49,565 bases of DNA from Xanthobacteraceae bacterium (GTDB lineage: Bacteria; Pseudomonadota; Alphaproteobacteria; Rhizobiales; Xanthobacteraceae): positions 1 to 49,565 of the forward strand of contig DATFWC010000303.1 of the NCBI GenBank assembly GCA_035259885.1, read 5' to 3'. The notes under the pieces were generated by a model that was not told where the DNA came from, ran no database searches, and saw only the letters and a program-made list of their open reading frames with translations. Below are positions 6,995 through 49,414 of the stretch, piece after piece (position 1 is the stretch's first letter; every line of letters begins with the position of its first letter). Made by a program: the position numbers and the translations under genes.

Positions 6995-7548
6995 CGGACG
7001 CGGCAGGCCTCAGCACGCCGGAAGAAGTCGTCGGGTTCTGGCAGGCCGCCGGTGCCGACAAATGGTTCACCAAGGACGATGCCCTCGACGCCGCCATTCG
7101 CGCGCGCTTTCTCCCCACCTATGAGGCCGCGGCGGCCGGGCGGTTGAGCGCGTGGGAGGCGACGGCGGCCGGAGCGCTGGCGCTCGTCATCGTGCTCGAC
7201 CAGTTTTCGCGCAACATGTTCCGCGGCAGCGCCAGCACCTTTGCGGCCGATCCGCTCGCCCGCGCGGGCGCAGACCGCGCGCTGGAGCGCGGCTTCGACC
7301 AGGCGGTGCCACAAGACCTGCGCACGTTCTTCTATCTGCCGTTCATGCACTCGGAAACGTTGGCCGACCAGGAACGCTGCGTCGCCCTCTACCGCGCGCT
7401 GGGCGACGACGACAGCCTGAAATATGCCGAGGACCACGCCGACATCATCCGCCGCTTCGGCCGCTTCCCCCATCGCAACGACGTGCTGGGCCGTGCCACC
7501 ACGGCCGAGGAACAAGCCTTTCTGGATGCTGGCGGGTTTGCCGGGTAA
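6991..7548 (+). CDS. DUF924-family protein
   Basis: ORF track. LDQFSRNMFRG, FFYLPFMHSE and RFGRFPHRNDVLGRATTAEE match the DUF924 pattern as I remember it. ATGA overlap with the synthetase stop. Confidence 0.8.
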   Translation: MTDAAGLSTPEEVVGFWQAAGADKWFTKDDALDAAIRARFLPTYEAAAAGRLSAWEATAAGALALVIVLDQFSRNMFRGSASTFAADPLARAGADRALERGFDQAVPQDLRTFFYLPFMHSETLADQERCVALYRALGDDDSLKYAEDHADIIRRFGRFPHRNDVLGRATTAEEQAFLDAGGFAG

Positions 7549-7635
7549 GCGCGTCTGTGCCGCGTCTTCGATGCGCGGCGACGCCACTTGCGTCGACCTC
7601 CGTGGTGCTTGCCTGGGCGATCGCACCAACGCGGC

Positions 7636-7763
7636 TGTTATTCCGGCCGAGCGCCGTGGGCGCGAGAGCCGGAACGCATGTACACCAGCCGAGCCTTGTT
7701 TTCTGACGCCGGGGTACTTGGGTCCCGGGTCTCGCCGCTTCGCGGCTCGCCCGGGATGACAGC
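7636..7763. repeat. REP-A palindromic intergenic element, copy 1 (inverted orientation)
   Basis: Terminal inverted repeats GTTATTCCGG...CCGGGATGAC. Each arm is itself a GC hairpin. Aligns by eye with five other copies. Confidence 0.85.
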
Positions 7764-17431: not shown

Positions 17432-17588
17432 TGTCATCCTGGCCGAGCGCGAAGCGCGAGAGCCGGGATCCATGTATCACTGCGACAATGGCAAGAACGC
17501 TGGCGAGAACCGGCAACACCGGGGGTACTTGGATCCCGGATCGGCGCGCTTTGGCGCTGCGCGCCGCGCGCCGTCCGGGATGACAGCC
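17432..17588. repeat. REP-A element, copy 2 (inverted orientation)
   Basis: GTCATCCTGG...TCCGGGATGAC. The reverse complement aligns with the canonical copies. Confidence 0.85.
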
Positions 17589-18203: not shown

Positions 18204-20657
18204 CTACGCCCGCTCGGGCTTGGCGGCGAGCATCTGCGGCTCGGCCGCCGCACCGCTGCCGTCGAGGATCCGCACCTCGTACTGGGGATTGGGGATAGCA
18301 ATCTTGGCCAGGCGGAAGCGGCGCAGAATCTCGAAATGCAGGTCGCTCTTCACTGGCAGGCCGTTGTCCACATGGCCGACCACGCAGCGCAGCTCGAACT
18401 GCAGTGTGCTGTCGAGCGACACCAGGAAGGCGCGCGGCGGCGGCGTTTCCAGCACGAGCGGGTGATCGCGCGCGCAGCTGAGCAGGATGTCGCGCACCTC
18501 TTCCGGATCGGCATCGCAGTTCACCCCGACCTTGCAGATGATGCGGCCGGTCGGATTGCCGTGCGTCCAGTTCTTCACCACGCCGGTGATCAGCTCGGAG
18601 TTCGGGATGATGACGCTGGCGCGGTCGAACGTCTCGATCTCGGTGGCACGCACGCTGATGCGCCGCACGTAGCCTTCCTCGCCCTTGACCACGATGGAGT
18701 CGCCGACGCGGATCGGCCGCTCGGCGAGCAGGATCAGGCCGGAGACGAAGTTCGACACGATCGATTGCAGGCCGAAGCCGATGCCGACCGACAGCGCGCC
18801 GGCGATCAGGGCGATCTTCTGCACGTCGATGCCGAGTGCGGCGAGCGCGAAGGTGAGCGCCGCGATGACGCCGATATAGCCGATGATGGTGGACACCGAG
18901 AGCTGCAGGCTGGGCTCGAGCCCGGTGCGCGGCAGGAAGCGCGTCTGCAGCCAGCGCTGCACGGCGCGCGTCGCCAGGATGCCGATGAGCAGCACGGCGA
19001 AGGCGCCGAGGATGGCGGTGAGCGAGATGGTGATTTCGCCGATGCGGAAGCCGAACACCGCGCCCTGCACGGTGCCGAACATGTCGGCGGCGAACATGCC
19101 GGAACGGCCGAGGACGGGGAAGATCGCCACCAGGACGAGGAGGATGCGGACCACGGCCGACAGCACCGTGCCGATCAGCTCGACGCCGCGCGGGCCGATG
19201 CCGAAGGTCGCCGCAATGGCGCGGTTGCGTGGCGTGTCCCCGGTCAGCACCTCTGTGAACAGGGCGTCGGTGAAGATCAGGCAGATACAGAGCTCGGCCA
19301 GCACCGCCAGTACGATGAGCAGGCGGCTCGCGAGGAACGCCGCGAAGCCGATATAGCCGAGCGCCAGCGCCACCAGGATGGCGGCCACGACCAGCCACGC
19401 CGCCGCCCGGATCCATTGCGCGCCCGCGTGGCCCGCGATTGCCTCGGCCGGAGCGCTCTCGCGCACGCGCAGCAGCGTGCTGGCGACGATCGCCACCACG
19501 ATGACGGCGAACAGCGCGCTGGTGGCGATGGTCAACGACACCGGCGCCACCACGGCGCGGTGGATGACGTTGAGGAAGATCGCGGCACCCAGCACCCGCA
19601 TGGCCCAGGCGAACCGGTGCGTCAGGCGGCGAGCCGTGACGTCGTCGATGGGCACGAGCCGGCGCGCCGGTGTGCCCGGCGCCAGCAGGCCAGCCACGGC
19701 GCCATGGCTGAACGACGCGATGGCGACCGCGGTGACCAGGCCCTTGCCGATGTGCCAGATTGGCGGCGGGATGAGCCCGCAGGCGTCGAACACGAGCAGG
19801 ACGGCGCCCGCGCACAGCGGCGCCGTGAGGCCGACCTGGAGGGTCGAGATCAGCGCGGCCAGCGCCTTGGCGAAGCGCGTCTCCACCCGCGGTACGAATT
19901 CGCGCCGGCGCCACCAGCGCACGAACACGGTGGCGGCGGCCGCCAGCGCCACCAGCGTCACGGCGGCCAGGATGATGCCGCTCACGCCCCCGGTCTCGTA
20001 GGCGTAGCTCCACCACGACTGGACCAGATAGCCGACGCTGCGCAGCTCCTGCGGCGCCGCGTCTGCGACGTCGCGCCAGAAGGTGAACTGCAGCGCGCTC
20101 GGCGTGCGCTTGAACAGGCGTTGGGTGAATATGGCACGGCGGCGGTCGGTAATGCGGTCGGTGAGCTGGTCGGCGCGCAGCGCCAGCTGCCGCGCCTGGC
20201 GCAGCGTGGCGTCGAGCTCGCCAAACACCTTGGTGAGGCGCTCACGCTCCGCCGCCAGTCCGGCATCCTCGGGCGGAGCGGTAGCCGGCGGCGCCGGCCC
20301 GAGCTGCTTGAGGCGCGTATCGACCTCGCTGATCTGCGGCTCGAGCGCATCGGTGCGCCCGCGCAGGCCGTCGCGCACGCCTCCGATGCGGTCGCGCAGC
20401 TCGACCAGAGAATCGTCGCCGATGCCCTCGCGGCCAATCGCGGTCTCGATCTGGTCGAGCTCGAACCGGAACGGGTCCAGCGCCGCGAGCGGCGACGGCC
20501 GTGTCGGCTGCGCCGATGCCGGCTGTGAAGCCGTCGGCTGTGACGATGCGGGCTGCGCCCAGGCCGGCGCTGTCGGCACGAGTGCGATCAGCCCCGCCGC
20601 GACGAGCGCCATCAAGGCCAGCCGGCACACCGGCACGCGAGCGAATCGGGTCGCCAT
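18204..20657 (-). CDS. Mechanosensitive channel, MscK/KefA-like (long periplasmic N-domain plus MscS core)
   Basis: ORF track 18204..20708, trimmed to MATRFARVPVC.... Signal peptide, coiled N-region, about 10 TM segments. MscS-like C-terminus (...LLAERPIRVGDSIVVKGEEGYVRRISVRATEIETFD...). Confidence 0.9.
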   Translation of the reverse strand: MATRFARVPVCRLALMALVAAGLIALVPTAPAWAQPASSQPTASQPASAQPTRPSPLAALDPFRFELDQIETAIGREGIGDDSLVELRDRIGGVRDGLRGRTDALEPQISEVDTRLKQLGPAPPATAPPEDAGLAAERERLTKVFGELDATLRQARQLALRADQLTDRITDRRRAIFTQRLFKRTPSALQFTFWRDVADAAPQELRSVGYLVQSWWSYAYETGGVSGIILAAVTLVALAAAATVFVRWWRRREFVPRVETRFAKALAALISTLQVGLTAPLCAGAVLLVFDACGLIPPPIWHIGKGLVTAVAIASFSHGAVAGLLAPGTPARRLVPIDDVTARRLTHRFAWAMRVLGAAIFLNVIHRAVVAPVSLTIATSALFAVIVVAIVASTLLRVRESAPAEAIAGHAGAQWIRAAAWLVVAAILVALALGYIGFAAFLASRLLIVLAVLAELCICLIFTDALFTEVLTGDTPRNRAIAATFGIGPRGVELIGTVLSAVVRILLVLVAIFPVLGRSGMFAADMFGTVQGAVFGFRIGEITISLTAILGAFAVLLIGILATRAVQRWLQTRFLPRTGLEPSLQLSVSTIIGYIGVIAALTFALAALGIDVQKIALIAGALSVGIGFGLQSIVSNFVSGLILLAERPIRVGDSIVVKGEEGYVRRISVRATEIETFDRASVIIPNSELITGVVKNWTHGNPTGRIICKVGVNCDADPEEVRDILLSCARDHPLVLETPPPRAFLVSLDSTLQFELRCVVGHVDNGLPVKSDLHFEILRRFRLAKIAIPNPQYEVRILDGSGAAAEPQMLAAKPERA

Positions 20658-20863
20658 CGTGGTTTTCCCCTGTGGCCGGGGTCTCACGCGGCCGCAATGC
20701 CGTGTCAAGCATCGCCCTTCGGGCCGGCGCGCCGCCGGTGCCCGCGCCTGCGGTGTTTTGCGAGCCCTGGCAATGCCTTGTGGCGACTGCCGCCGTGTCG
20801 CGTTGTCGCCACAGGAGTATTGCAGTACATGTCGGCAGCTGCGGGGAGGAACGGATTGGCCGA

Positions 20864-23023
<2,160 letters not shown>

Positions 23024-23109
23024 GCAACCTATCCGCCCACGGCCCATTGGACAGCCGCCCGGGTTGGCGCGATCCTGGGCGCGAGGCAAGATTTCCGAGG
23101 GAGAGTGTC

Positions 23110-24411
23110 ATGGACGAGCGCACCCGCGAACCCATCCAGATCCGGGCCGAGGACATCAACCCGCGCTACAACTGGGCGCGCGCGCTGCCGGCGCTCGGCA
23201 CCATGGGGGTCGATTTCGAGGAACGCGTCGACTACCGGCGCCTACACCGCTACCGGCTGTCGCGCGTCAAGCAAGCGCTGGAGAAATCCGACCTCGGCGC
23301 ACTGCTGGTGTTCGACGTCAATAACATCCGCTACATCACGTCGACCAAGATCGGCGAGTGGGAGCGCGACAAGTTGTGCCGCTGGGCACTGCTCACCCGC
23401 GACGGCGACCCGATCCTGTGGGACTTCGGCTCCGCCGCCGTGCACCACAAGCTCTACGTGCCGTGGCTCAAGCCCGAGAACTGCAAGGCCGGGCTGATTG
23501 GCCTGCGCGGCACGGTGTCGCCGTCCTTCGGCCTGATGAAGCGCCACGCCGAGGAAATAGCGGCGCTGATCCGCGAGGCGGGCGTCGGCAACATGCCGGT
23601 CGGCGTCGACATCATCGAGCCGCCGATGATGTTCGAGCTGGAGAAGGCGGGATTGAAGATCGTCGACGGCCAGCAGACCATGCTGGAGGCGCGCGAGGTC
23701 AAGAACATCGACGAGATCGCGCTTCTCAACCGCGCCGCCGCCATGGTGGACGGCGCTTACCACCTGATCAACGAGGAGCTCAAACCTGGCGTGCGTGAGA
23801 ACGACATCGTCGCCAAGGTGAACGAATTCCTCTACCGCAACGGCTCCGATGACGTGGAGGCGATCAACGCCATCTCGGGCGAGCGTTGCAACCCGCACCC
23901 GCACAACTTCACCGACCGCATGCTGCGCCCGGGCGACCAGGCGTTCTTCGACATTCTCCAGTCGTTCATGGGCTACCGCACCTGCTACTACCGGACCTTC
24001 AATGTCGGGCGCGCCACGCCGGTGCAGCACGACGCCTACAAGAAGGCGCGCGAGTGGCTCGACAACGCCATCGCGCTGATCACGCCCGGCGTCACCACCG
24101 ACAAGGTGTGCTCGGTGTGGCCGAAGGCGCCGGAGTTCGGTTTCCCGGACGAGATGGCGGCGTTCGGGCTGCAGTTTGGCCACGGGCTCGGCCTAGCGCT
24201 GCACGAGCGGCCGATCATCTCGCGCGTCGTGTCGATGGATCACCCGACCGAGATCAAGGAAGGCATGGTTTTCGCGCTCGAAACCTATTGCCCGGCCAAG
24301 GACGGGTTCTCGGCCGCGCGCATCGAGGAGGAAGTGGTGGTCACCGACAAGGGCTGCCGCGTGATCACGCTGTTCCCGGCCGAGGAGCTGCCGATCAGCC
24401 ACAGGTATTGA
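23110..24411 (+). CDS. M24-fold (creatinase/prolidase/DddP-like) protein, atypical metal site
   Basis: ORF track 23047..24411, trimmed to MDERTRE... (GAGGGAG upstream). Pita-bread motifs FFD..., GHGLGLALHERP, FALETY, IEEEVVVT. The second canonical Asp appears replaced by Cys (GYRTCYYRT). Confidence 0.8.
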   Translation: MDERTREPIQIRAEDINPRYNWARALPALGTMGVDFEERVDYRRLHRYRLSRVKQALEKSDLGALLVFDVNNIRYITSTKIGEWERDKLCRWALLTRDGDPILWDFGSAAVHHKLYVPWLKPENCKAGLIGLRGTVSPSFGLMKRHAEEIAALIREAGVGNMPVGVDIIEPPMMFELEKAGLKIVDGQQTMLEAREVKNIDEIALLNRAAAMVDGAYHLINEELKPGVRENDIVAKVNEFLYRNGSDDVEAINAISGERCNPHPHNFTDRMLRPGDQAFFDILQSFMGYRTCYYRTFNVGRATPVQHDAYKKAREWLDNAIALITPGVTTDKVCSVWPKAPEFGFPDEMAAFGLQFGHGLGLALHERPIISRVVSMDHPTEIKEGMVFALETYCPAKDGFSAARIEEEVVVTDKGCRVITLFPAEELPISHRY

Positions 24412-24434
24412 GCCCGGTTGCCGTGTGAGGGGAC

Positions 24435-24671
24435 GTGCGAACCGCTCTGCGCTGGAGTTCCTATCGGGCTTTTTTCTATTCGAATGAACGCGACGAACCT
24501 GCGCACGTGCATGTCCGTCAGGGCGACCGGGAAGCCAAATTCTGGCTTCATGACCTTACCGTCGCGGTGAATATCGGGTTTCCTGCACACGAACTCGGCG
24601 ATATTATCCGTCATCTGCGATCACATCGCGAAGAACTGCTGGCGAGCTGGAATGACTACTTTGGAGATTAA
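24435..24671 (+). CDS. DUF4160-family small protein
   Basis: ORF track. GTG start with GAGGGGA upstream. ...AFFYSNERDEPAHVHVRQGDREAKFWL... is the DUF4160 signature as I recall it. About 54% G+C by hand count. Confidence 0.8.
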   Translation: MRTALRWSSYRAFFYSNERDEPAHVHVRQGDREAKFWLHDLTVAVNIGFPAHELGDIIRHLRSHREELLASWNDYFGD

Positions 24672-24894
24672 TGTTGGCGACCTTCGTGCACGCGCGGTCG
24701 AGTTCACGGCGAGCGAACTGGTGGTAACACTCGTCGATGGCCGCAAGATCGCGACGCCGCTTGAATGGTATCCGCGCCTGAAGAACGCCACGCCTGAGCA
24801 GCGCGCCAAATACGAAATCATGCCGATGGGCATTCACTGGCCGGACCTCGACGAAGATCTCGGGATCGCCGGAATGCTGAAGGGGCGTTCCTGA
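24652..24894 (+). CDS. DUF2442-family small protein
   Basis: ORF track. ...VVTLVDGRKIATPLEWYPRLKNATPEQR...IHWPDLDEDL... matches the DUF2442 pattern. Overlaps the DUF4160 ORF by 20 nt in another frame. Confidence 0.8.
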   Translation: MTTLEINVGDLRARAVEFTASELVVTLVDGRKIATPLEWYPRLKNATPEQRAKYEIMPMGIHWPDLDEDLGIAGMLKGRS

Positions 24895-24903
24895 GCCGGC
24901 GGC

Positions 24904-24963
24904 ATGCTGGCCGCCTTCGCCACGCTCCTCGTCTGTCAACTCGCTGGCGAAACCCTGGCTCGG
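24904..24963 (+). pseudogene. N-terminal fragment of a CidA/LrgA-like holin-like gene
   Basis: MLAAFATLLVCQLAGETLA with GC-rich third positions resembles LrgA/CidA N-termini (LL.FQL.GE.L). The coding signal in this frame stops after ~20 codons, and no lrgB-like gene follows. Confidence 0.3.
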
Positions 24964-25168
24964 CGTTCACCCGCGCGCCCGCGCACGGCCTGTGGGAGAG
25001 CGAAGGCGAGACCCACCGCGACGACATCGTGGTGTCGATGTGACGCCGCCCCGACCTCGACAGGACATGGCGGCGGCACTGCCGCAGGCGCCTCGAGACC
25101 ATGTTCCGCCAGGAAAAGATCATCCGTGCGCGGGATGTGGAGATTCTGTAGCGGCACGACCTCTCCAC

Positions 25169-25296
25169 TGTCATCCCGGACGGCTCGCATCAGCGAGCCG
25201 ATCCGGGATCCAAGTATCCCGGCATCAGCAATTTATCCAGACGGGGATACATGGTTCCCGGCTCTCGCGCCTTTGGCGCTCGGCCGGGATGACAGC
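25169..25296. repeat. REP-A element, copy 3 (canonical orientation)
   Basis: CTGTCATCCCGGAC...GGCCGGGATGACAGC, at a convergent junction. Confidence 0.85.
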
Positions 25297-25318
25297 AGAA
25301 ACATCGATGACCCAATGA

Positions 25319-26578
25319 TCAATCCGCCGCGATCCCCATCGCCTCCTGAAAGGCGCGGCGCACGTGCGGCGGCTGGCCGTAGTGATGGCGGAATTCCTTG
25401 AGGCGCGCCTTGAGCAGCGGAAAATTGTCGAACTCGGCGAGCGCCATGCCCTCGGTATTGACCTCGCGCGCCATGTTGGGCAGCGCGATGCACTGCGCCG
25501 CGTTGGCGGTGCGGATGACGCCCTTGGGATCGCGCCCCGCCGCAACCGCGTCCATCTCCTCGAACAGCCGCTGGCGCATCATGGTGATGCCCACATCGCT
25601 CGAGCGCAGGTTCTCCTTGGTGCGGTCCGCGATGGTGCCCTGGCCAACCCAGGCGACGATGTCCTGGTTGATGACGTGGCTGGAAATCCAGCGGCCGGAC
25701 GAGTCCTTGATCGGGCTCACCCAGGTCGGGATGTCCTGCTGCACGAAAGGCTCGCGTTCTCTGGGCACGCGCATGAAGAACCACGCCACGCTGAGCGTGT
25801 TCTCGTCATCCACCGGCACGCGCCATTCGAAATGGCTGCCGAGAAAGAAACCGTTCGGCCACAGCGCCACACGGCCGACCGTCCAGTAGCGGTCGCTCTC
25901 GCTCTGGCCCTCGCGCACGCGCTTGTACACGAAGCCGTGCTCGAACTCCTCGAACTTGATCCTGAGATGTTTTGGCGCCGCGCCGTCGCGGCCGGTGAGG
26001 CGTAGGCTCCAGTTGTCGTGCATCCATTCGAAATGCACCGGATCGATCGAGTTCTCCTGGCACTGGAACCAGTTGCACGGCACATCGGCGAGCACGATCT
26101 CGCGAAAGCCGTTGGGCCAGGTGAACGGCTCCCACTCGGGCAGCTCGGGCGCTGGCTCGGGCCCGAGATAGGCCCACAACAGGCCGGCCAGCTCGCGCAC
26201 CGGATAGGCCGTGGTGGCACAGCGCTCCCTGGCGCGCGGGTTGGCATTGGCCACGTCCTCATACGGCTGCTCCAGGCAGCGGCCGCTCTCGTCGAACAGC
26301 CAGCCGTGGTAGCTGCAGCGGATGCCGGTCGCCTCCACCCAGCCATAGAGGAGATCGGCACGCCGGTGCGGGCAGTGGCGGTCGACCAGGCCGTAACGCC
26401 CGCCGAGATCGCGGTAGAGCACGAGGTCCTCGCCCATGAGCCGGATCGGCTTGATCGGATTTTTTTCGCCAAGCTCCGATGCGCCGGCGATCGGCTGCCA
26501 GTAGCGCCGCAGCAGCGCGCCCATCGGCGTGCCCGGCCCGACGCGGGTGAGCATTTGGTTCTTCTCGGCTGTAAGCAC
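25319..26578 (-). CDS. Rieske [2Fe-2S] non-heme-iron oxygenase, alpha/monooxygenase-type subunit
   Basis: ORF track 25319..26869, trimmed to the GTG start (VLTAEKNQMLTRVGPGTPMG...) with GGGGAGGG upstream. Rieske motif CPHRRADL...CSYHGW. Fe motif DPVHFEWMH. Confidence 0.9.
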   Translation of the reverse strand: MLTAEKNQMLTRVGPGTPMGALLRRYWQPIAGASELGEKNPIKPIRLMGEDLVLYRDLGGRYGLVDRHCPHRRADLLYGWVEATGIRCSYHGWLFDESGRCLEQPYEDVANANPRARERCATTAYPVRELAGLLWAYLGPEPAPELPEWEPFTWPNGFREIVLADVPCNWFQCQENSIDPVHFEWMHDNWSLRLTGRDGAAPKHLRIKFEEFEHGFVYKRVREGQSESDRYWTVGRVALWPNGFFLGSHFEWRVPVDDENTLSVAWFFMRVPREREPFVQQDIPTWVSPIKDSSGRWISSHVINQDIVAWVGQGTIADRTKENLRSSDVGITMMRQRLFEEMDAVAAGRDPKGVIRTANAAQCIALPNMAREVNTEGMALAEFDNFPLLKARLKEFRHHYGQPPHVRRAFQEAMGIAAD

Positions 26579-26643
26579 GGGCGCCCTCCCCTCTGGTGCT
26601 CGAGGAGATTGGCAAGCACGCGATGCCGCCGCAACCGGTCGCG

Positions 26644-27411
26644 CTATGCGCGCGCGGCGCTGCTCTGGCGCAGATGCGGCATGCGCTCGCTGAGCAGCGA
26701 GCCCGGATAGTAGGTCAGGGCGAAGGCCGGCTGGGCGCGGATTTCGTCGAACCAGCGCACGACGCGCGGCAGGTCCTGCCAGTCCCCGGCGCGGCCGAGG
26801 TCGGCCATGCGCACCAGTGCCGGCATCACGGAAATGTCGGCGAGCGTGATCTCTTTGCCCAGGAGCCACGGGCCGCCGCTGCGGGCGATCTCGGCGTCCA
26901 TGCGCTCGTAGGTGCGGCGCAGGCGGGCGAGCGCGGCCTGCATCTCGGCGTCGGGGAAGCCCTTGCGCCCCATGGTCAGCATGAACTCGCGGCGCAGCGG
27001 CTTGGCCTCGGCAAAGGCCTGAAACTCCTCGTCGCTCATGGCGGCAAAGCGCGGCAGGAAGGCGAGATTGAATGTGGGCACGCGCACCGCCGCCGCCGGC
27101 ATCTCGTCAATGAAGCGCATGAGCGAACGCATATGCGCGCGCTCGGCCGGTTCCGGCGGCGTGAAGCTTTGCGCCGGCGCCACCTCGTCGAGATATTCGA
27201 CGATGACCGAAGAGTCGATGATGATCGCGCCGTCGTGGTCGAGCGTCGGCACCACGCCGTTGGGATTAAGCTTGAGATACTCGGGCTTGAGCTGGTCGCC
27301 CGCCAACAGGTCGAGCTTCACCTCCGTGAACGGAAGCTGTTTGGCATTGAGCACGAAGCGGACCCGCTGGCTGCAGGTCGACGGCGGCGCGTTGTAGAGC
27401 GTGAAGGGCAT
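26644..27411 (-). CDS. Glutathione S-transferase family protein
   Basis: ORF track 26644..27492, trimmed to MPFTLYNAPPS... (GGAG upstream). ...NPNGVVPTLDHDGAIIIDSSVIVEYL... GST N-domain. Confidence 0.85.
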   Translation of the reverse strand: MPFTLYNAPPSTCSQRVRFVLNAKQLPFTEVKLDLLAGDQLKPEYLKLNPNGVVPTLDHDGAIIIDSSVIVEYLDEVAPAQSFTPPEPAERAHMRSLMRFIDEMPAAAVRVPTFNLAFLPRFAAMSDEEFQAFAEAKPLRREFMLTMGRKGFPDAEMQAALARLRRTYERMDAEIARSGGPWLLGKEITLADISVMPALVRMADLGRAGDWQDLPRVVRWFDEIRAQPAFALTYYPGSLLSERMPHLRQSSAARA

Positions 27412-27437
27412 GGGACACTCCGCACGATAGTGGCGGT

Positions 27438-27574
27438 TGTCATCCCGGACGGCGCGCAGCGCCGATCCGGGATCCAGGTACCCCGGCATCACAGATCAAT
27501 GTTGGCAGTATTGCAAGCGCGATGGTCGTGGATCCCGGCCCTCGCGCCTATAGGCGCTCGGCCGGGATGACAGC
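27438..27574. repeat. REP-A element, copy 4 (canonical orientation)
   Basis: TTGTCATCCCGGACGGCGCGCAGCGCCGATCCGGGATCC...GGCGCTCGGCCGGGATGACAGCC. Confidence 0.85.
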
Positions 27575-27602
27575 CGAGAAGATGGCTGGACCTCGTTCCG
27601 CC

Positions 27603-28562
27603 TCAGCTCTCCAGCCCGGTGGGCACGTTCTTGTGCTCGCTCTCGAGTTTCATGCCGGAGGCGAGCGCCATGGTCTCGGCCAGCGCGGCAAAATCCTTCT
27701 GCAGGTATTCGTCCGCGTTCTTCTGCAGGGTGGCGGCGCCGAAGTGGCTCTGGATCACCTCGCGCGCCGCGGCGGTGACTGGCATGATCACGTCGTTCTC
27801 GCGCCCGAGCTCGAGCCCGAGGTCGAGGTCCTTGCGCAGCAGCTCCGGTGTGAACGTGGTGGTCCAGTCGAGGTTGACCAGCGCCGGCGACTTGTAGGCC
27901 GTGAACATCGAGCCCATGACGCTGTTGTTGAGGAAGGCCAGGAAGGCGTGGCGCGGCACGCCCATCTTGTTGGTCAGCAGCGTGATCTCGATCAGGTTCT
28001 CGATGACGACGCCGAGCATGACGTTGTGGGCGATCTTGCACACGCGCGCGAGCTCGCCTTCGCCGACGTAGGAGACGCCGCGCGGTGCGAACACATGGAT
28101 CATCGGCTCGGCGGCGCGGAACGCTGCTTCCGGGCCGGACGCGACGGCGGACAGCTTTCCGGCCTTGATCACCTTGGCGTTGCCGCTCACCGGGCAGGCG
28201 ACGAAGTCGGCGCCGAGCTGCTTCAGGCGGTCGCGGATGGCGGCGGATTCCTCGACCCCGATGGTGGAGCAGTCGACGAACACCGGCGGCACTTTTCCGC
28301 CCGACCCGGTGACGCTGTTCTTGCCGAAATAGACCTGGTCGAGATCCTTTCCCGTCGAGACGATGGAGAACAGCACGTCGACGCCCTTGAGGTCGAACAG
28401 GTTGTCGACGATCTTGCCGCCCTTCTTGGCGAGCGGCTCGGCCTTCGACCGCGTGCGGTTCCAGATCGAGACGTCGTAGCCGGCATCGAGCAGCCGCTCG
28501 GCCATGGGGTAGCCCATGCGGCCCATGCCGATCCAGCCGATCTTGTGAGTGTTCTTCGCCAT
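27603..28562 (-). CDS. NAD(P)-dependent beta-hydroxyacid dehydrogenase (3-hydroxyisobutyrate dehydrogenase family)
   Basis: ORF track 27603..28610, trimmed to MAKNTHKIGWIGMGRMGYPMAERLL (AGGAGA upstream). GxGxxG plus a 6PGDH-like NAD-binding pattern. Confidence 0.9.
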   Translation of the reverse strand: MAKNTHKIGWIGMGRMGYPMAERLLDAGYDVSIWNRTRSKAEPLAKKGGKIVDNLFDLKGVDVLFSIVSTGKDLDQVYFGKNSVTGSGGKVPPVFVDCSTIGVEESAAIRDRLKQLGADFVACPVSGNAKVIKAGKLSAVASGPEAAFRAAEPMIHVFAPRGVSYVGEGELARVCKIAHNVMLGVVIENLIEITLLTNKMGVPRHAFLAFLNNSVMGSMFTAYKSPALVNLDWTTTFTPELLRKDLDLGLELGRENDVIMPVTAAAREVIQSHFGAATLQKNADEYLQKDFAALAETMALASGMKLESEHKNVPTGLES

Positions 28563-33335: not shown

Positions 33336-33352
33336 GGCGACATTACTTCGGC

Positions 33353-33497
33353 TGTCATCCCGGACCGCGAGCGAAGCGAGCCGAGTCGGGATCCAAGTAC
33401 CCCCGCATCAGAAATCATGGTTGGCCTTTCTTCAACTGAAGCACCGGGAGTCTTGGATCCCGGCTCTCTCCCCTTCGCCGCTCGGCCGGGATGACCC
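33353..33497. repeat. REP-A element, copy 5 (canonical orientation)
   Basis: GCTGTCATCCCGGACC...CTCGGCCGGGATGACC. Confidence 0.85.
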
Positions 33498-43699: not shown

Positions 43700-44968
43700 A
43701 TGGGAGCGAATTTCGGCACCGTCGGCATGGACTGGCAGCAGCGCGTCAACTGGGACCGCCTGCGCACGTACCGGACCGAACGCGCGCGCGAGATGATGAA
43801 GAAGCACGGGCTCGGCGCCATGCTGTGCATGTACGACGAGAACGTGCGCTACCTCACCGGCACGCTGACGCCCGGATGGAACCGGCTCAAGCCCGGCCTG
43901 CGCTACGCCATGCTGTGCGGCGACGGGGCGCCGATCCTGTTCGAGCAGGGCGACCTGGGATTCCAGATCGAGCGCCACTCGCCGTGGCTGCCCAAGGAGA
44001 ACGTCCGCCATTCCTTCGCCTGGATCAAAGGCGCGGCCGGCCCCGCCTCGACCCAGCAGGTGACCAAGTTCACCAACGCCATCATCGAGGAGATGAAGCG
44101 GCACGGCGTGTGGGGCCAGAAGCTCGGCGTCGATTTCATCGACATCAACATGATCAACATCTTTCGCGACAAGAACATCACCTGGGTCGACGGCATGACC
44201 CCGATGATGGAGGCGCGCGCGGTCAAGAACGTCGACGAGCAGGAATGCATGCGCATCGTCGGCGCCATCGGCGACGCCACCCACTGGGAATGCATGAAGT
44301 TCCTGCGGCCCGGCATCACCGAGAACCAGGTCACGGCGCACCTGATGGAATATCTCTACTCGTTCGCCGGAATGGAGGACGTCGAGGACGTCATCGTGTC
44401 GTCGGGCCCGAACACCTGGCCCAACTGGCGCAACTTCTCCGACCGCATCATCCAGCCGGGCGACATCGTGTTCATGGATCTCGCCGCGCTGACGTGGAAC
44501 GGCTACAAGTCCTGCTACTACCGCACCTATTGTGTCGGCAAGGAGCCGACGCAGGAGCAGAAGGACACCTACGCCACCGCGCTCGAGTGGCTGTACGACT
44601 CGATCGACGCCGTGAAGGTCGGCGCCACCACCCGCGACATCGCGGAGAAATGGCCGTCCGCCATGGAGACCTGGGGCTACGAGGACGAGGATCAGGCGGC
44701 CGCCAATCTGTGGGGCCATGGGCTCGGGCTGGCGCAGTACGACCAGCCGGTCATCTCGCGCATCTGGTCGCTCGACCATCCGGTCGAGATCAAGGAAGGC
44801 ATGACGTTTGCGCTGGAGACCCAGCACGGAAAGCGCTTCCGTTACGGCGTCCGCATCGAGGAAATGCTGATCGTGCACAAGGATTCGATCGAGATCGTCT
44901 CCAATTTCCCGGTCAAGCAAATTACAGTGGTTGACCCGTTGCCGGGCTATGGCGACCACGTGAAGTGA
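43700..44968 (+). CDS. M24-fold (creatinase/prolidase/DddP-like) protein, atypical metal site (paralogue of 23110..24411)
   Basis: ORF track. Same architecture as the first copy. FMD..., GYKSCYYRT (Cys at the second-Asp position), GHGLGLAQYDQP, FALETQ, IEEMLIV. Confidence 0.8.
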   Translation: MGANFGTVGMDWQQRVNWDRLRTYRTERAREMMKKHGLGAMLCMYDENVRYLTGTLTPGWNRLKPGLRYAMLCGDGAPILFEQGDLGFQIERHSPWLPKENVRHSFAWIKGAAGPASTQQVTKFTNAIIEEMKRHGVWGQKLGVDFIDINMINIFRDKNITWVDGMTPMMEARAVKNVDEQECMRIVGAIGDATHWECMKFLRPGITENQVTAHLMEYLYSFAGMEDVEDVIVSSGPNTWPNWRNFSDRIIQPGDIVFMDLAALTWNGYKSCYYRTYCVGKEPTQEQKDTYATALEWLYDSIDAVKVGATTRDIAEKWPSAMETWGYEDEDQAAANLWGHGLGLAQYDQPVISRIWSLDHPVEIKEGMTFALETQHGKRFRYGVRIEEMLIVHKDSIEIVSNFPVKQITVVDPLPGYGDHVK

Positions 44969-49202: not shown

Positions 49203-49233
49203 GTGGTGATCAACTTTTATCCACTCGCTCGGC

Positions 49234-49388
49234 TGTCATCCCGGGCGAGCCGCGCAGCGGCGAGACCCGGGACCCAAGTACCCCGGCATTGGGAAATTAT
49301 CGCGGACGACCCTCGGTGACACAAATCACCACAGGGGTACGTGGGTCCCGGCTCTCGCGCCTGACGGCGCTCGGCCGGGATGACAGCC
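49234..49388. repeat. REP-A element, copy 6 (canonical orientation)
   Basis: CGGCTGTCATCCCGG...CCGGGATGACAGCCG, a 15-bp perfect terminal inverted repeat. Confidence 0.85.
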
Positions 49389-49414
49389 GAGGTGGCAGAC
49401 AGGCGGCTTGCCAA

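Follow-up and report, generated by a model that had tools for sequence, protein, structure and literature searches.

Our analysis of a chromosomal contig of a soil Xanthobacteraceae bacterium, 49,565 nucleotides (nt) long and here referred to in its entirety as the window, indicates that two small overlapping genes within it most probably form an intact and active type II toxin-antitoxin module on the chromosome, a member of the DhiTA (DUF4160/DUF2442) superfamily. This reading is based on the Pfam matches of both proteins, the relationship of the first protein to the toxin DhiT, the toxin-first layout of all 32 related loci, the presence of copies on plasmids, purifying selection on both genes, and the retention of the conserved toxin residues. 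ORF A (positions 24435 to 24671, plus strand) starts with GTG, encodes 78 amino acids (aa), and represents the DUF4160 toxin component (DhiT superfamily). ORF B (positions 24652 to 24894, plus strand) starts with ATG, encodes 80 aa, and represents the DUF2442 antitoxin component (DhiA superfamily). A preliminary description of this DNA, made from the letters alone, had placed two ORFs at these positions, overlapping by 20 nt (24652 to 24671) in different frames, and the ORF listing agrees. It had also assigned the two proteins to DUF4160 and DUF2442 and proposed profile searches as a check, and Pfam confirmed both families at 71 and 76 bits, far over the cutoffs. ORF A matched PF13711 (DUF4160) with an E value of 8.5e-20 and 71.2 bits (cutoff of 23), its residues 10 to 73 covering positions 2 to 65 of the 65-position profile, and ORF B matched PF10387 (DUF2442) with an E value of 3.7e-21 and 75.6 bits (cutoff of 23.9). 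The toxin-first, co-directional, and overlapping DUF4160-DUF2442 layout, which is the criterion of the DhiTA superfamily, is that of ORF A and ORF B. As had been described, the GTG start stands behind a G-rich motif, a Shine-Dalgarno (SD)-like GAGGGG located 2 nt upstream of it (positions 24427 to 24432, plus strand), and a 23-nt spacer separates ORF A from the stop of the preceding M24 gene at position 24411. Open frames arising by chance in GC-rich DNA were also considered, but the HMM scores, the dN/dS values, and hundreds of length-conserved homologues rule this out for the two ORFs.

The interpretation of the pair as a toxin-antitoxin or addiction module, already put forward in the preliminary description, fits published experiments on the same domain pair (PMC8198452, PMC12724237). 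The accompanying remark, that no function had been established experimentally for either family, has been superseded by the published work on DhiTA and on a Thermus pair. The dhiTA locus of Dickeya dadantii 3937 (DDA3937_RS07415/RS07420) was described in 2021 as a co-transcribed, toxin-first operon of a DUF4160 toxin and a DUF2442 antitoxin (PMC8198452). DhiT inhibited the growth of Escherichia coli and Dickeya without filamentation, and co-expression of DhiA abolished this effect; furthermore, the dhiTA promoter was repressed by approximately 50% by the antitoxin and by 70 to 99% by the complex, and dhiTA did not stabilize a test plasmid in E. coli (PMC8198452). The window pair resembles DhiTA in the combination of Pfam families, in the toxin-first order of two overlapping genes that run in the same direction, each with about 80 codons, and in its chromosomal location. 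However, the genes overlap by 20 nt in the window pair and by 3 nt ("-3") in Dickeya, the window pair belongs to an alphaproteobacterium of approximately 67% G+C, and it starts 23 nt after the M24 stop and lacks a conserved 100-bp promoter region of its own.

The second characterized system is the "Persistence-Enhancing Module" of a Thermus thermophilus plasmid, reported in 2025, which encodes DUF4160 and DUF2442 proteins of 87 and 92 aa, respectively, and raises plasmid persistence (PMC12724237). The module deprived of the second ORF yielded no transformants in Thermus, the module had no effect in E. coli, and an AF3 heterodimer of the two proteins was reported (PMC12724237). The domain pair and the gene order are the same as in the window; nevertheless, the Thermus module is plasmid-borne and its proteins are slightly longer, whereas the copy in the window lies on a chromosome, and none of the genes next to it serves replication or mobility. 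A DUF2442 gene usually stands behind DUF4160, which is also found at the C-terminus of Menshen NsnC as an effector domain; the other effector domains of NsnC are mostly RNases or nucleases (PMC12065111). The toxin domain is thus shared with Menshen and is read as an effector there, but in NsnC it is fused to an N-terminal inactive-PIN (inPIN) domain and works with NsnA (ParB-DUF262) and NsnB (ABC ATPase). ORF A stands alone as a 78-aa protein paired with DUF2442, and its surroundings encode neither NsnA nor NsnB. In Synechocystis, the DUF4160 protein Ssl2064 sediments together with RNA-rich fractions and belongs to a shortlist of RNA-chaperone candidates (PMC8136920). The locus is a distant member of a validated toxin-antitoxin family and therefore not a new system. 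HigBA, HicAB, and MqsRA are likewise toxin-first type II systems of small proteins. The window pair has this reversed gene order and small size in common with them, but it has no known sequence or fold relationship to them, and their antitoxins carry helix-turn-helix (HTH) or RHH DNA-binding domains, which DUF2442 lacks.

Both genes are under strong constraint. ORF A has 247 close homologues, 68 to 96% identical and almost all 78 aa long, in soil metagenomes and in Xanthobacteraceae, Beijerinckiaceae, and Tardiphaga genomes, and an exhaustive search of the DUF4160 family yielded 1789 representatives at 50% identity, nearly all of them of 75 to 135 aa. In an alignment of 130 diverse members, at least 81% of the sequences retain each of the residues E21, P22, H24, H26, A34, K35, W37, L38, G48, F49, E53, W72, and F76, and V27 is also among the conserved positions. 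ORF A keeps these positions, with the E21-P22-x-H24-x-H26 and A34-K35-x-W37-L38 motifs, E53, and W72 intact, and the sole family-wide conserved toxin residue missing from it is P2. Comparison of cassette copies from different contexts gave dN/dS values of 0.04 to 0.16 for ORF A and 0.06 to 0.24 for ORF B, and this purifying selection (0.04 to 0.24 over both genes) argues that both are functional and constrained.

The relationship to the Dickeya toxin is distant. Against the NCBIfam equivalog model NF048015 (toxin_DhiT), ORF A scored 30 bits (E value of 5.9e-7) and did not reach the cutoff of 100, which makes it a relative of Dickeya DhiT rather than an equivalog. Plasmid homologues of ORF A scored 18 to 25 bits against the same model, and among the enterobacterial plasmid homologues, in which a true DhiT equivalog was sought, none was found at the cutoff of 100. 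NCBIfam held no match for ORF B, neither protein matched the defense models of PADLOC-DB v2 at E values up to 0.1, and PHROGs gave one marginal match (E value of 0.013) to a family of unknown function. The AlphaFold2 (AF2) model of ORF A (pLDDT of 92.9) consists of five strands and two helices. Foldseek comparison of the model with the PDB and BFVD returned nothing better than an E value of 0.28 or a TM score of 0.5, and the ORF A sequence had no match in the PDB. Judged by this model, the DUF4160 toxin appears to have a structurally orphan fold, and since the model has no structural neighbor, the mechanism of the toxin is not readable from it.

ORF B has 2261 homologues. The N-terminus M-[ST]-T-L-E-I-D is conserved in 45 ORF B homologues and, together with the identical 20-nt overlap in related loci, it identifies the ATG at position 24652 as the start of ORF B. 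The TTG at position 24661, which is called as the start in locus L081, where the ATG is replaced by ATT, was considered and ruled out, as M1, L4, and E5 are invariant in the aligned homologues. The AF2 model of ORF B (pLDDT of 88.5) matched the structural-genomics DUF2442 structures 2x8n and 3k8r with TM scores of 0.68 to 0.72 and a probability of 1.0. The preliminary description had likened the protein to Nitrosomonas NE0471; the DUF2442 fold stood, with TM scores of about 0.7 to the two structures above, but the link to NE0471 itself (2auw) was seen weakly (TM score of 0.43, E value of 0.58).

The survey of related loci, which had been suggested as a check of recurrent adjacency, revealed a DUF4160 frame directly upstream of, and overlapping, the DUF2442 gene in 32 of 32 cases (L081 to L112), a count that takes in loci in which the gene index had missed the DUF4160 frame. 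In two of these loci, the toxin is decayed and the antitoxin intact, by a frameshift in L109 and by truncation in L112. The adjacency also holds for most of the 39 plasmids in PLSDB whose toxin is 44 to 49% identical to ORF A, nearly all of which have an annotated overlapping DUF2442 gene. Aeromonas plasmids of 3.4 to 3.7 kb carry only rep, mob, and the DUF4160/DUF2442 pair; on the Acetobacteraceae plasmid p1, the pair adjoins a RelE/ParE pair and parB; and in Salmonella SGI4 and a Serratia IncI1 plasmid, it is located 3′ of ssb. These plasmid and ICE pairs (Aeromonas, Pantoea, Erwinia, Salmonella SGI4, Serratia IncI1, and Acetobacteraceae p1) share with the window pair the toxin-first overlap, which spans 17 to 29 nt, and the position directly behind a co-directional gene. 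In contrast to the window pair, they reside on mobile replicons beside rep, mob, ssb, par, or other toxin-antitoxin genes. They are annotated as DUF proteins only. A homologue is also carried by a phage-like record, Erwinia phage LS-2018a.

The overlap measures 20 nt in all close homologous loci in which both genes were called, as well as in the Salmonella SGI4 and Serratia plasmid copies. In the window (positions 24652 to 24671, plus strand), the end of ORF A, TGG AAT GAC TAC TTT GGA GAT TAA, is read out of frame with the beginning of ORF B, ATG ACT ACT TTG GAG ATT A.. The start of ORF B is located within the conserved W-N-x-x-F-G-x end of ORF A, and no SD-like motif was found in front of it, which suggests coupling by termination and reinitiation. 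We consider the overlap a probable site of such translational coupling. A G-rich, SD-like motif is present 2 to 10 nt upstream of the ORF A start in all homologous cassettes. DNA homology between contexts extends from this motif, a few bases before the ORF A start, to the stop of ORF B; the conserved unit of approximately 460 bp consists of the coding pair and its ribosome-binding site only.

Comparison between contexts revealed no conserved promoter or operator upstream of the cassette, and DhiTA-type autoregulation may therefore not apply here. A scan of positions 23900 to 25400 for sigma-70-like promoters, which is of limited value for a high-GC alphaproteobacterium, found none. No terminator-like site was detected between M24 and ORF A, nor a plus-strand terminator after ORF B. 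In every context, the cassette is located 0 to 69 nt 3′ of a co-directional host gene, with one annotation having a 4-nt overlap, and in five independent contexts the upstream genes encode an M24 protein, a HAD hydrolase, a carboxyl-transferase, a HEAT-repeat protein, and an SDR. Transcription is probably driven by the upstream gene or by a promoter that lies within it. In the window, M24 would be the likely source of read-through transcription into the cassette, and a promoter within M24 is possible as well.

The cassette also stands out by its composition. The G+C contents estimated by hand in the preliminary description (about 54% for ORF A and about 61% for the rest of ORF B) agree with the computed values of 53.6% and 61.4%, the latter for the non-overlapping part of ORF B. 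At 57.4% G+C, compared with 67.4% for the window, the cassette has the lowest G+C content of any 460-bp segment in the 49.5 kb, approximately 3.4 standard deviations below the mean, so that its description as a low-GC outlier was correct. The low G+C content is not simply a sign of recent arrival, as low GC3 is found across the subfamily in every host context. GC3 is 0.53 in ORF A and 0.70 in ORF B, compared with 0.88 to 0.91 in the flanking M24, Rieske, and GST genes, and the subfamily cassettes all show low GC3 (0.51 to 0.65 for ORF A and 0.64 to 0.74 for ORF B), compared with 0.81 to 0.92 in the adjoining host genes. Recent foreign insertion was considered as the full cause of the low G+C content and judged insufficient, since every copy in the subfamily shares the low GC3. 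Between contexts, synonymous sites are saturated (dS > 1), and in shared contexts the dS of the cassette is 2 to 3 times that of the flanks. In the close genome pair L097/L098, cassette and flanks co-diverge, with a dS of 0.13 for the flanks and 0.04 to 0.09 for the cassette.

The low GC3 may reflect selection for AT-rich third positions. If AT-richness is maintained, throttled translation of the toxin, control of mRNA stability, or attraction of an AT-binding silencer are possible reasons. Alternatively, the alleles may have been repeatedly replaced from a lower-GC mobile pool. A broader proposal, that the DUF4160 toxin acts by a mechanism unlike that of any characterized toxin and that the subfamily is an unusual kind of toxin-antitoxin module, which has no conserved promoter of its own and rides on the host gene that happens to lie upstream, with its AT-rich synonymous sites actively maintained, is one that we put forward tentatively, as a possibility that is more doubtful than probable.

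The M24 peptidase/creatinase-like gene upstream of the cassette (positions 23047 to 24411, plus strand; PF00557, E value of 3e-37) is co-directional with it, and its true start is probably the ATG at position 23110 (MDERTREP...). Among Xanthobacteraceae, 80 species representatives carry M24 orthologues of 81 to 91% identity; most of these representatives are Pseudolabrys- and Rhodoplanes-like metagenome-assembled genomes. The preliminary description had pointed to conserved core synteny as an argument against its reading; however, a cassette within 6 kb of M24 was found in 0 of the 80 species-level orthologous loci, and it is hence accessory and not core. The neighbors in the window are M24, Rieske, GST, and histidine kinase genes. 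A convergent GST gene is located 3′ of M24 in 22 of the 80 loci, and a Rieske gene in the M24-GST interval is rare (2 of 80). Across these 22 loci, the M24-GST gap spans 56 to 4001 bp, compared with 2232 bp in the window, which marks the interval as a variable spot.

Positions 24016 to 28421 are 99.5 to 100% identical in four contigs from four samples, which indicates that the complete arrangement, with its remnants, has become fixed in a population that recurs between samples. L081 contains M24, the cassette, and a longer lrgA. Sliding identity between L081 and the window is 88% up to position 24257 and then 98.5% over positions 24258 to 24958, a tract of approximately 700 bp that comprises the last 154 nt of M24, the cassette, and an lrgA stub. 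The M24 3′ segment of this tract is not unusually conserved in the 80 orthologues (mean identity of 86.6%, maximum of 92%), which, together with the step in identity at position 24258, argues that the tract was recently exchanged through recombination within M24. The tract thus looks like a recent recombinational exchange, as judged from L081, a 1.5-kb metagenome contig that is possibly a chimeric assembly. The diverged lineage L110/L111 also carries a cassette in the M24-GST interval (identities of 80% for M24, 77% for GST, 71% for ORF A, and 81% for ORF B), and the association with this site is hence either old, with many losses, or renewed via flanking homology.

The gene fragments and the repetitive extragenic palindromic (REP) element that had been noted downstream of the pair are present. 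The first is a 5′ stub of approximately 18 codons of lrgA (CidA/LrgA holin-like; positions 24904 to 24958, plus strand), with 17 of 26 residues identical to the N-terminus of LrgA from L002; the remainder of the gene is deleted in the window. Intact lrgAB genes are located 3′ of M24 in L002 and L008, and the longer lrgA of L081 gave a Pfam LrgA match of 27.5 bits. The second fragment (about 24960 to 25148, plus strand) is a pseudogene consisting of the last approximately 60 codons of a conserved 101-aa ORF (tblastn, 48% identity, E value of 3e-13) and is broken by an in-frame TGA at positions 25041 to 25043. The intact ORF stands directly 3′ of M24 in the relative L044, and blastn aligned the remnant to positions 7426 to 7610 of L044 with 71% identity over 187 nt. 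Between these remnants and the convergent Rieske gene lies a REP/MITE-like structured repeat of approximately 150 bp (positions 25157 to 25306) with the terminal inverted repeats CTGTCATCCCGG / CCGGGATGACAG. At least five more copies are present in the window (27438 to 27577, 33352 to 33495, 7634 to 7762, 17432 to 17586, and 49229 to 49390). The repeat has a fold energy of -81 kcal/mol (z of -6.7) and could possibly serve as a transcript end or stabilizer. No Rfam family was found in the whole window.

In the mechanism that we propose, free ORF A, a predicted five-strand, two-helix protein with a conserved cluster of E-P-x-H-x-H, A-K-x-W-L, and E53, would arrest growth, and ORF B would bind and neutralize it as a protein antitoxin. 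Synthesis of the antitoxin would probably be coupled to ribosomes finishing the toxin gene, because the antitoxin start is located 20 nt inside that gene and has no SD sequence of its own, and the cassette would probably be transcribed with, or from within, M24. The pair would represent an accessory element of the variable M24-GST interval that is fixed in the population and was apparently exchanged between lineages through flanking homology. Our best guess for the toxin target is an RNA-directed activity that stops translation; this is weakly suggested by the arrest without filamentation caused by DhiT, the replacement of RNase or nuclease domains by DUF4160 in Menshen, and the presence of Ssl2064 in RNA-rich fractions. 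Against the toxin-antitoxin reading we counted the distance from DhiT, the lack of an NCBIfam match for ORF B, the lack of a PADLOC match, the lack of a conserved promoter, and the failure of dhiTA to stabilize a plasmid in E. coli.

Two other functions were weighed. If phage infection released the toxin, the pair could serve mainly in anti-phage defense by abortive infection, a proposal that differs from the toxin-antitoxin reading in the selected function only and that we regard as unlikely. Phage defense is by now a known role of many type II toxin-antitoxin pairs. The recruitment of DUF4160 as a C-terminal effector in the Menshen anti-phage system (PMC12065111) and the homologue in the Erwinia phage LS-2018a record point in the same direction, but neither protein was matched by the PADLOC models. 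Moreover, the neighborhood in the window is metabolic, with no defense island, integrase, or prophage, and the other contexts of the subfamily are likewise housekeeping or metabolic operons.

Alternatively, the pair may have been domesticated and no longer work as poison and antidote, its two proteins being kept for a different purpose in the cell, for example, regulation or RNA binding as a small complex linked to the upstream operon. In favor of this, the subfamily resides on chromosomes and is long-lived, as the saturation of dS between contexts shows, and it is under strong purifying selection; it is inherited vertically in very close genome pairs (L097, L098); its cassettes, which have no conserved promoter or operator of their own, always follow a co-directional host gene; and a cyanobacterial DUF4160 protein is on the RNA-chaperone candidate shortlist. 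However, the upstream host genes differ (M24, HAD hydrolase, carboxyl-transferase, HEAT protein, and SDR), so that no common pathway partner emerges, and the occasional decay of the toxin with an intact antitoxin in L109 and L112 is characteristic of toxin-antitoxin pairs. An active addiction module would be expected to show the strict linkage of the two genes and their conserved overlap, the copies on plasmids and ICEs, and the retained toxin residues, and we therefore consider domestication very unlikely.

With the pair read as a toxin-antitoxin module, two genes annotated as "DUF" can be named as a DhiT/DhiA-superfamily toxin-antitoxin pair, and the sequence behind them resolves into a stub of lrgA, the remains of a small gene, and a REP element, all within the variable M24-GST interval. 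For work on the mechanism, the locus offers no special leverage beyond that of an intact, well-conserved example with a minimal unit of approximately 460 bp. With 1789 clusters at 50% identity, the toxin family to which it belongs is a large one, and its members are spread over chromosomes, small plasmids, and ICEs. The details that the present locus and its relatives add are the conserved unit of that size, its place just behind a co-directional host gene, an overlap that stays at 20 nt, the absence of a conserved promoter of its own, the persistently low GC3, and the orphan toxin fold suggested by the model. Of these, the overlap, the missing promoter, and the low GC3 bear on how such cassettes are expressed and kept.

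The interval between the M24 peptidase-like gene and the convergent GST gene, which in the window spans positions 24412-26643 and holds the DUF4160/DUF2442 cassette, was compared with the orthologous M24 loci of 80 species representatives (L001-L080), none of which carries the cassette within 6 kb. This interval is a variable spot: its length ranged from 56 bp to 4 kb across 22 relatives, and its contents differed: L002 and L008 have lrgAB there, L044 has an ORF of 101 amino acids, and L066 has a Rieske gene. Upstream of the M24 gene, the hybrid histidine kinase gene (20501-23023) was syntenic in none of the 80 loci compared. Separately, a DNA segment at positions 44714-44821 is approximately 78% identical to part of the M24 gene, which points to another paralogue of the M24 family some 20 kb downstream of it.

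The gene adjoining the cassette, a Rieske/LigXa_C-type oxygenase gene on the negative strand (25319-26578), is itself accessory, being present in only two of the 80 orthologous loci (L066 and L035). Its mechanically predicted ORF (to position 26869) runs into the GST gene, while the real start yields a protein of 419 amino acids, as called in locus L117. The window also contains at least six dispersed copies of a REP/MITE-like element of about 130 to 150 bp within its 49.5 kb, at positions 7634-7762, 17432-17586, 25157-25306, 27438-27577, 33352-33495 and 49229-49390. The element is bounded by terminal inverted repeats (CTGTCATCCCGG and CCGGGATGACAG), encloses a palindrome and folds very strongly (-81 kcal/mol; z score of -6.7); a search of Rfam returned no family for the copies in the window. 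ORFs crossing the element are spurious, as exemplified by the peptide PGYLDPGSA, found in two of them.

Outside this locus, the DUF4160/DUF2442 pair was found on integrative and conjugative elements (ICEs) and conjugative plasmids, namely, in Pantoea (L114), on the plasmid form of Salmonella SGI4 (L115, 595-1075) and on a Serratia IncI1 plasmid (L116, 601-1090). On such elements the pair, with the same 20-nt overlap as the window cassette, lies between a PilL gene on its 3′ side and, immediately 5′ of it, either ssb or a gene for ICE replication, in what looks like the early-transferred region. Among the related cassette loci, PIN/VapC-type pairs lie close to the L091 cassette (L091, 575-1259 and 5421-6076) and a RelE/ParE-HTH pair close to the L102 cassette (L102, 3517-4111); no clustering of other toxin-antitoxin pairs with the cassette was observed in the window.

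The copies in some relatives appear altered. In L081, a short metagenome contig with a near-identical cassette, the antitoxin start is ATT in place of ATG (position 1057, corresponding to 24654 in the window), and the gene caller shifted the start to a TTG three codons downstream. The ATT may be an error of sequencing; if instead it is a true mutation of the start codon, it would reduce antitoxin synthesis. The lrgA gene on the same contig also carries a frameshift. Two further loci retain an intact DUF2442 gene beside a DUF4160 frame that contains a frameshift (L109, 2785-3014) or can be aligned from residue 21 onwards only (L112, 2844-3017); this may reflect toxin decay leaving an orphan antitoxin or, alternatively, long-read indel errors.

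Third-position G+C (GC3) was low in every cassette copy compared (window 24435-24894 and L082, L090, L091, L095, L097, L103 and L110), at 0.51 to 0.65 for the toxin gene (ORF A) and 0.64 to 0.74 for the antitoxin gene (ORF B), against 0.81 to 0.92 for host genes. Synonymous sites are saturated among these copies, yet the low GC3 is kept, and in shared contexts the synonymous divergence of the cassette is 2 to 3 times that of its flanks. The low GC3 of the cassette may reflect either selection for AT-rich codons or repeated allelic replacement.
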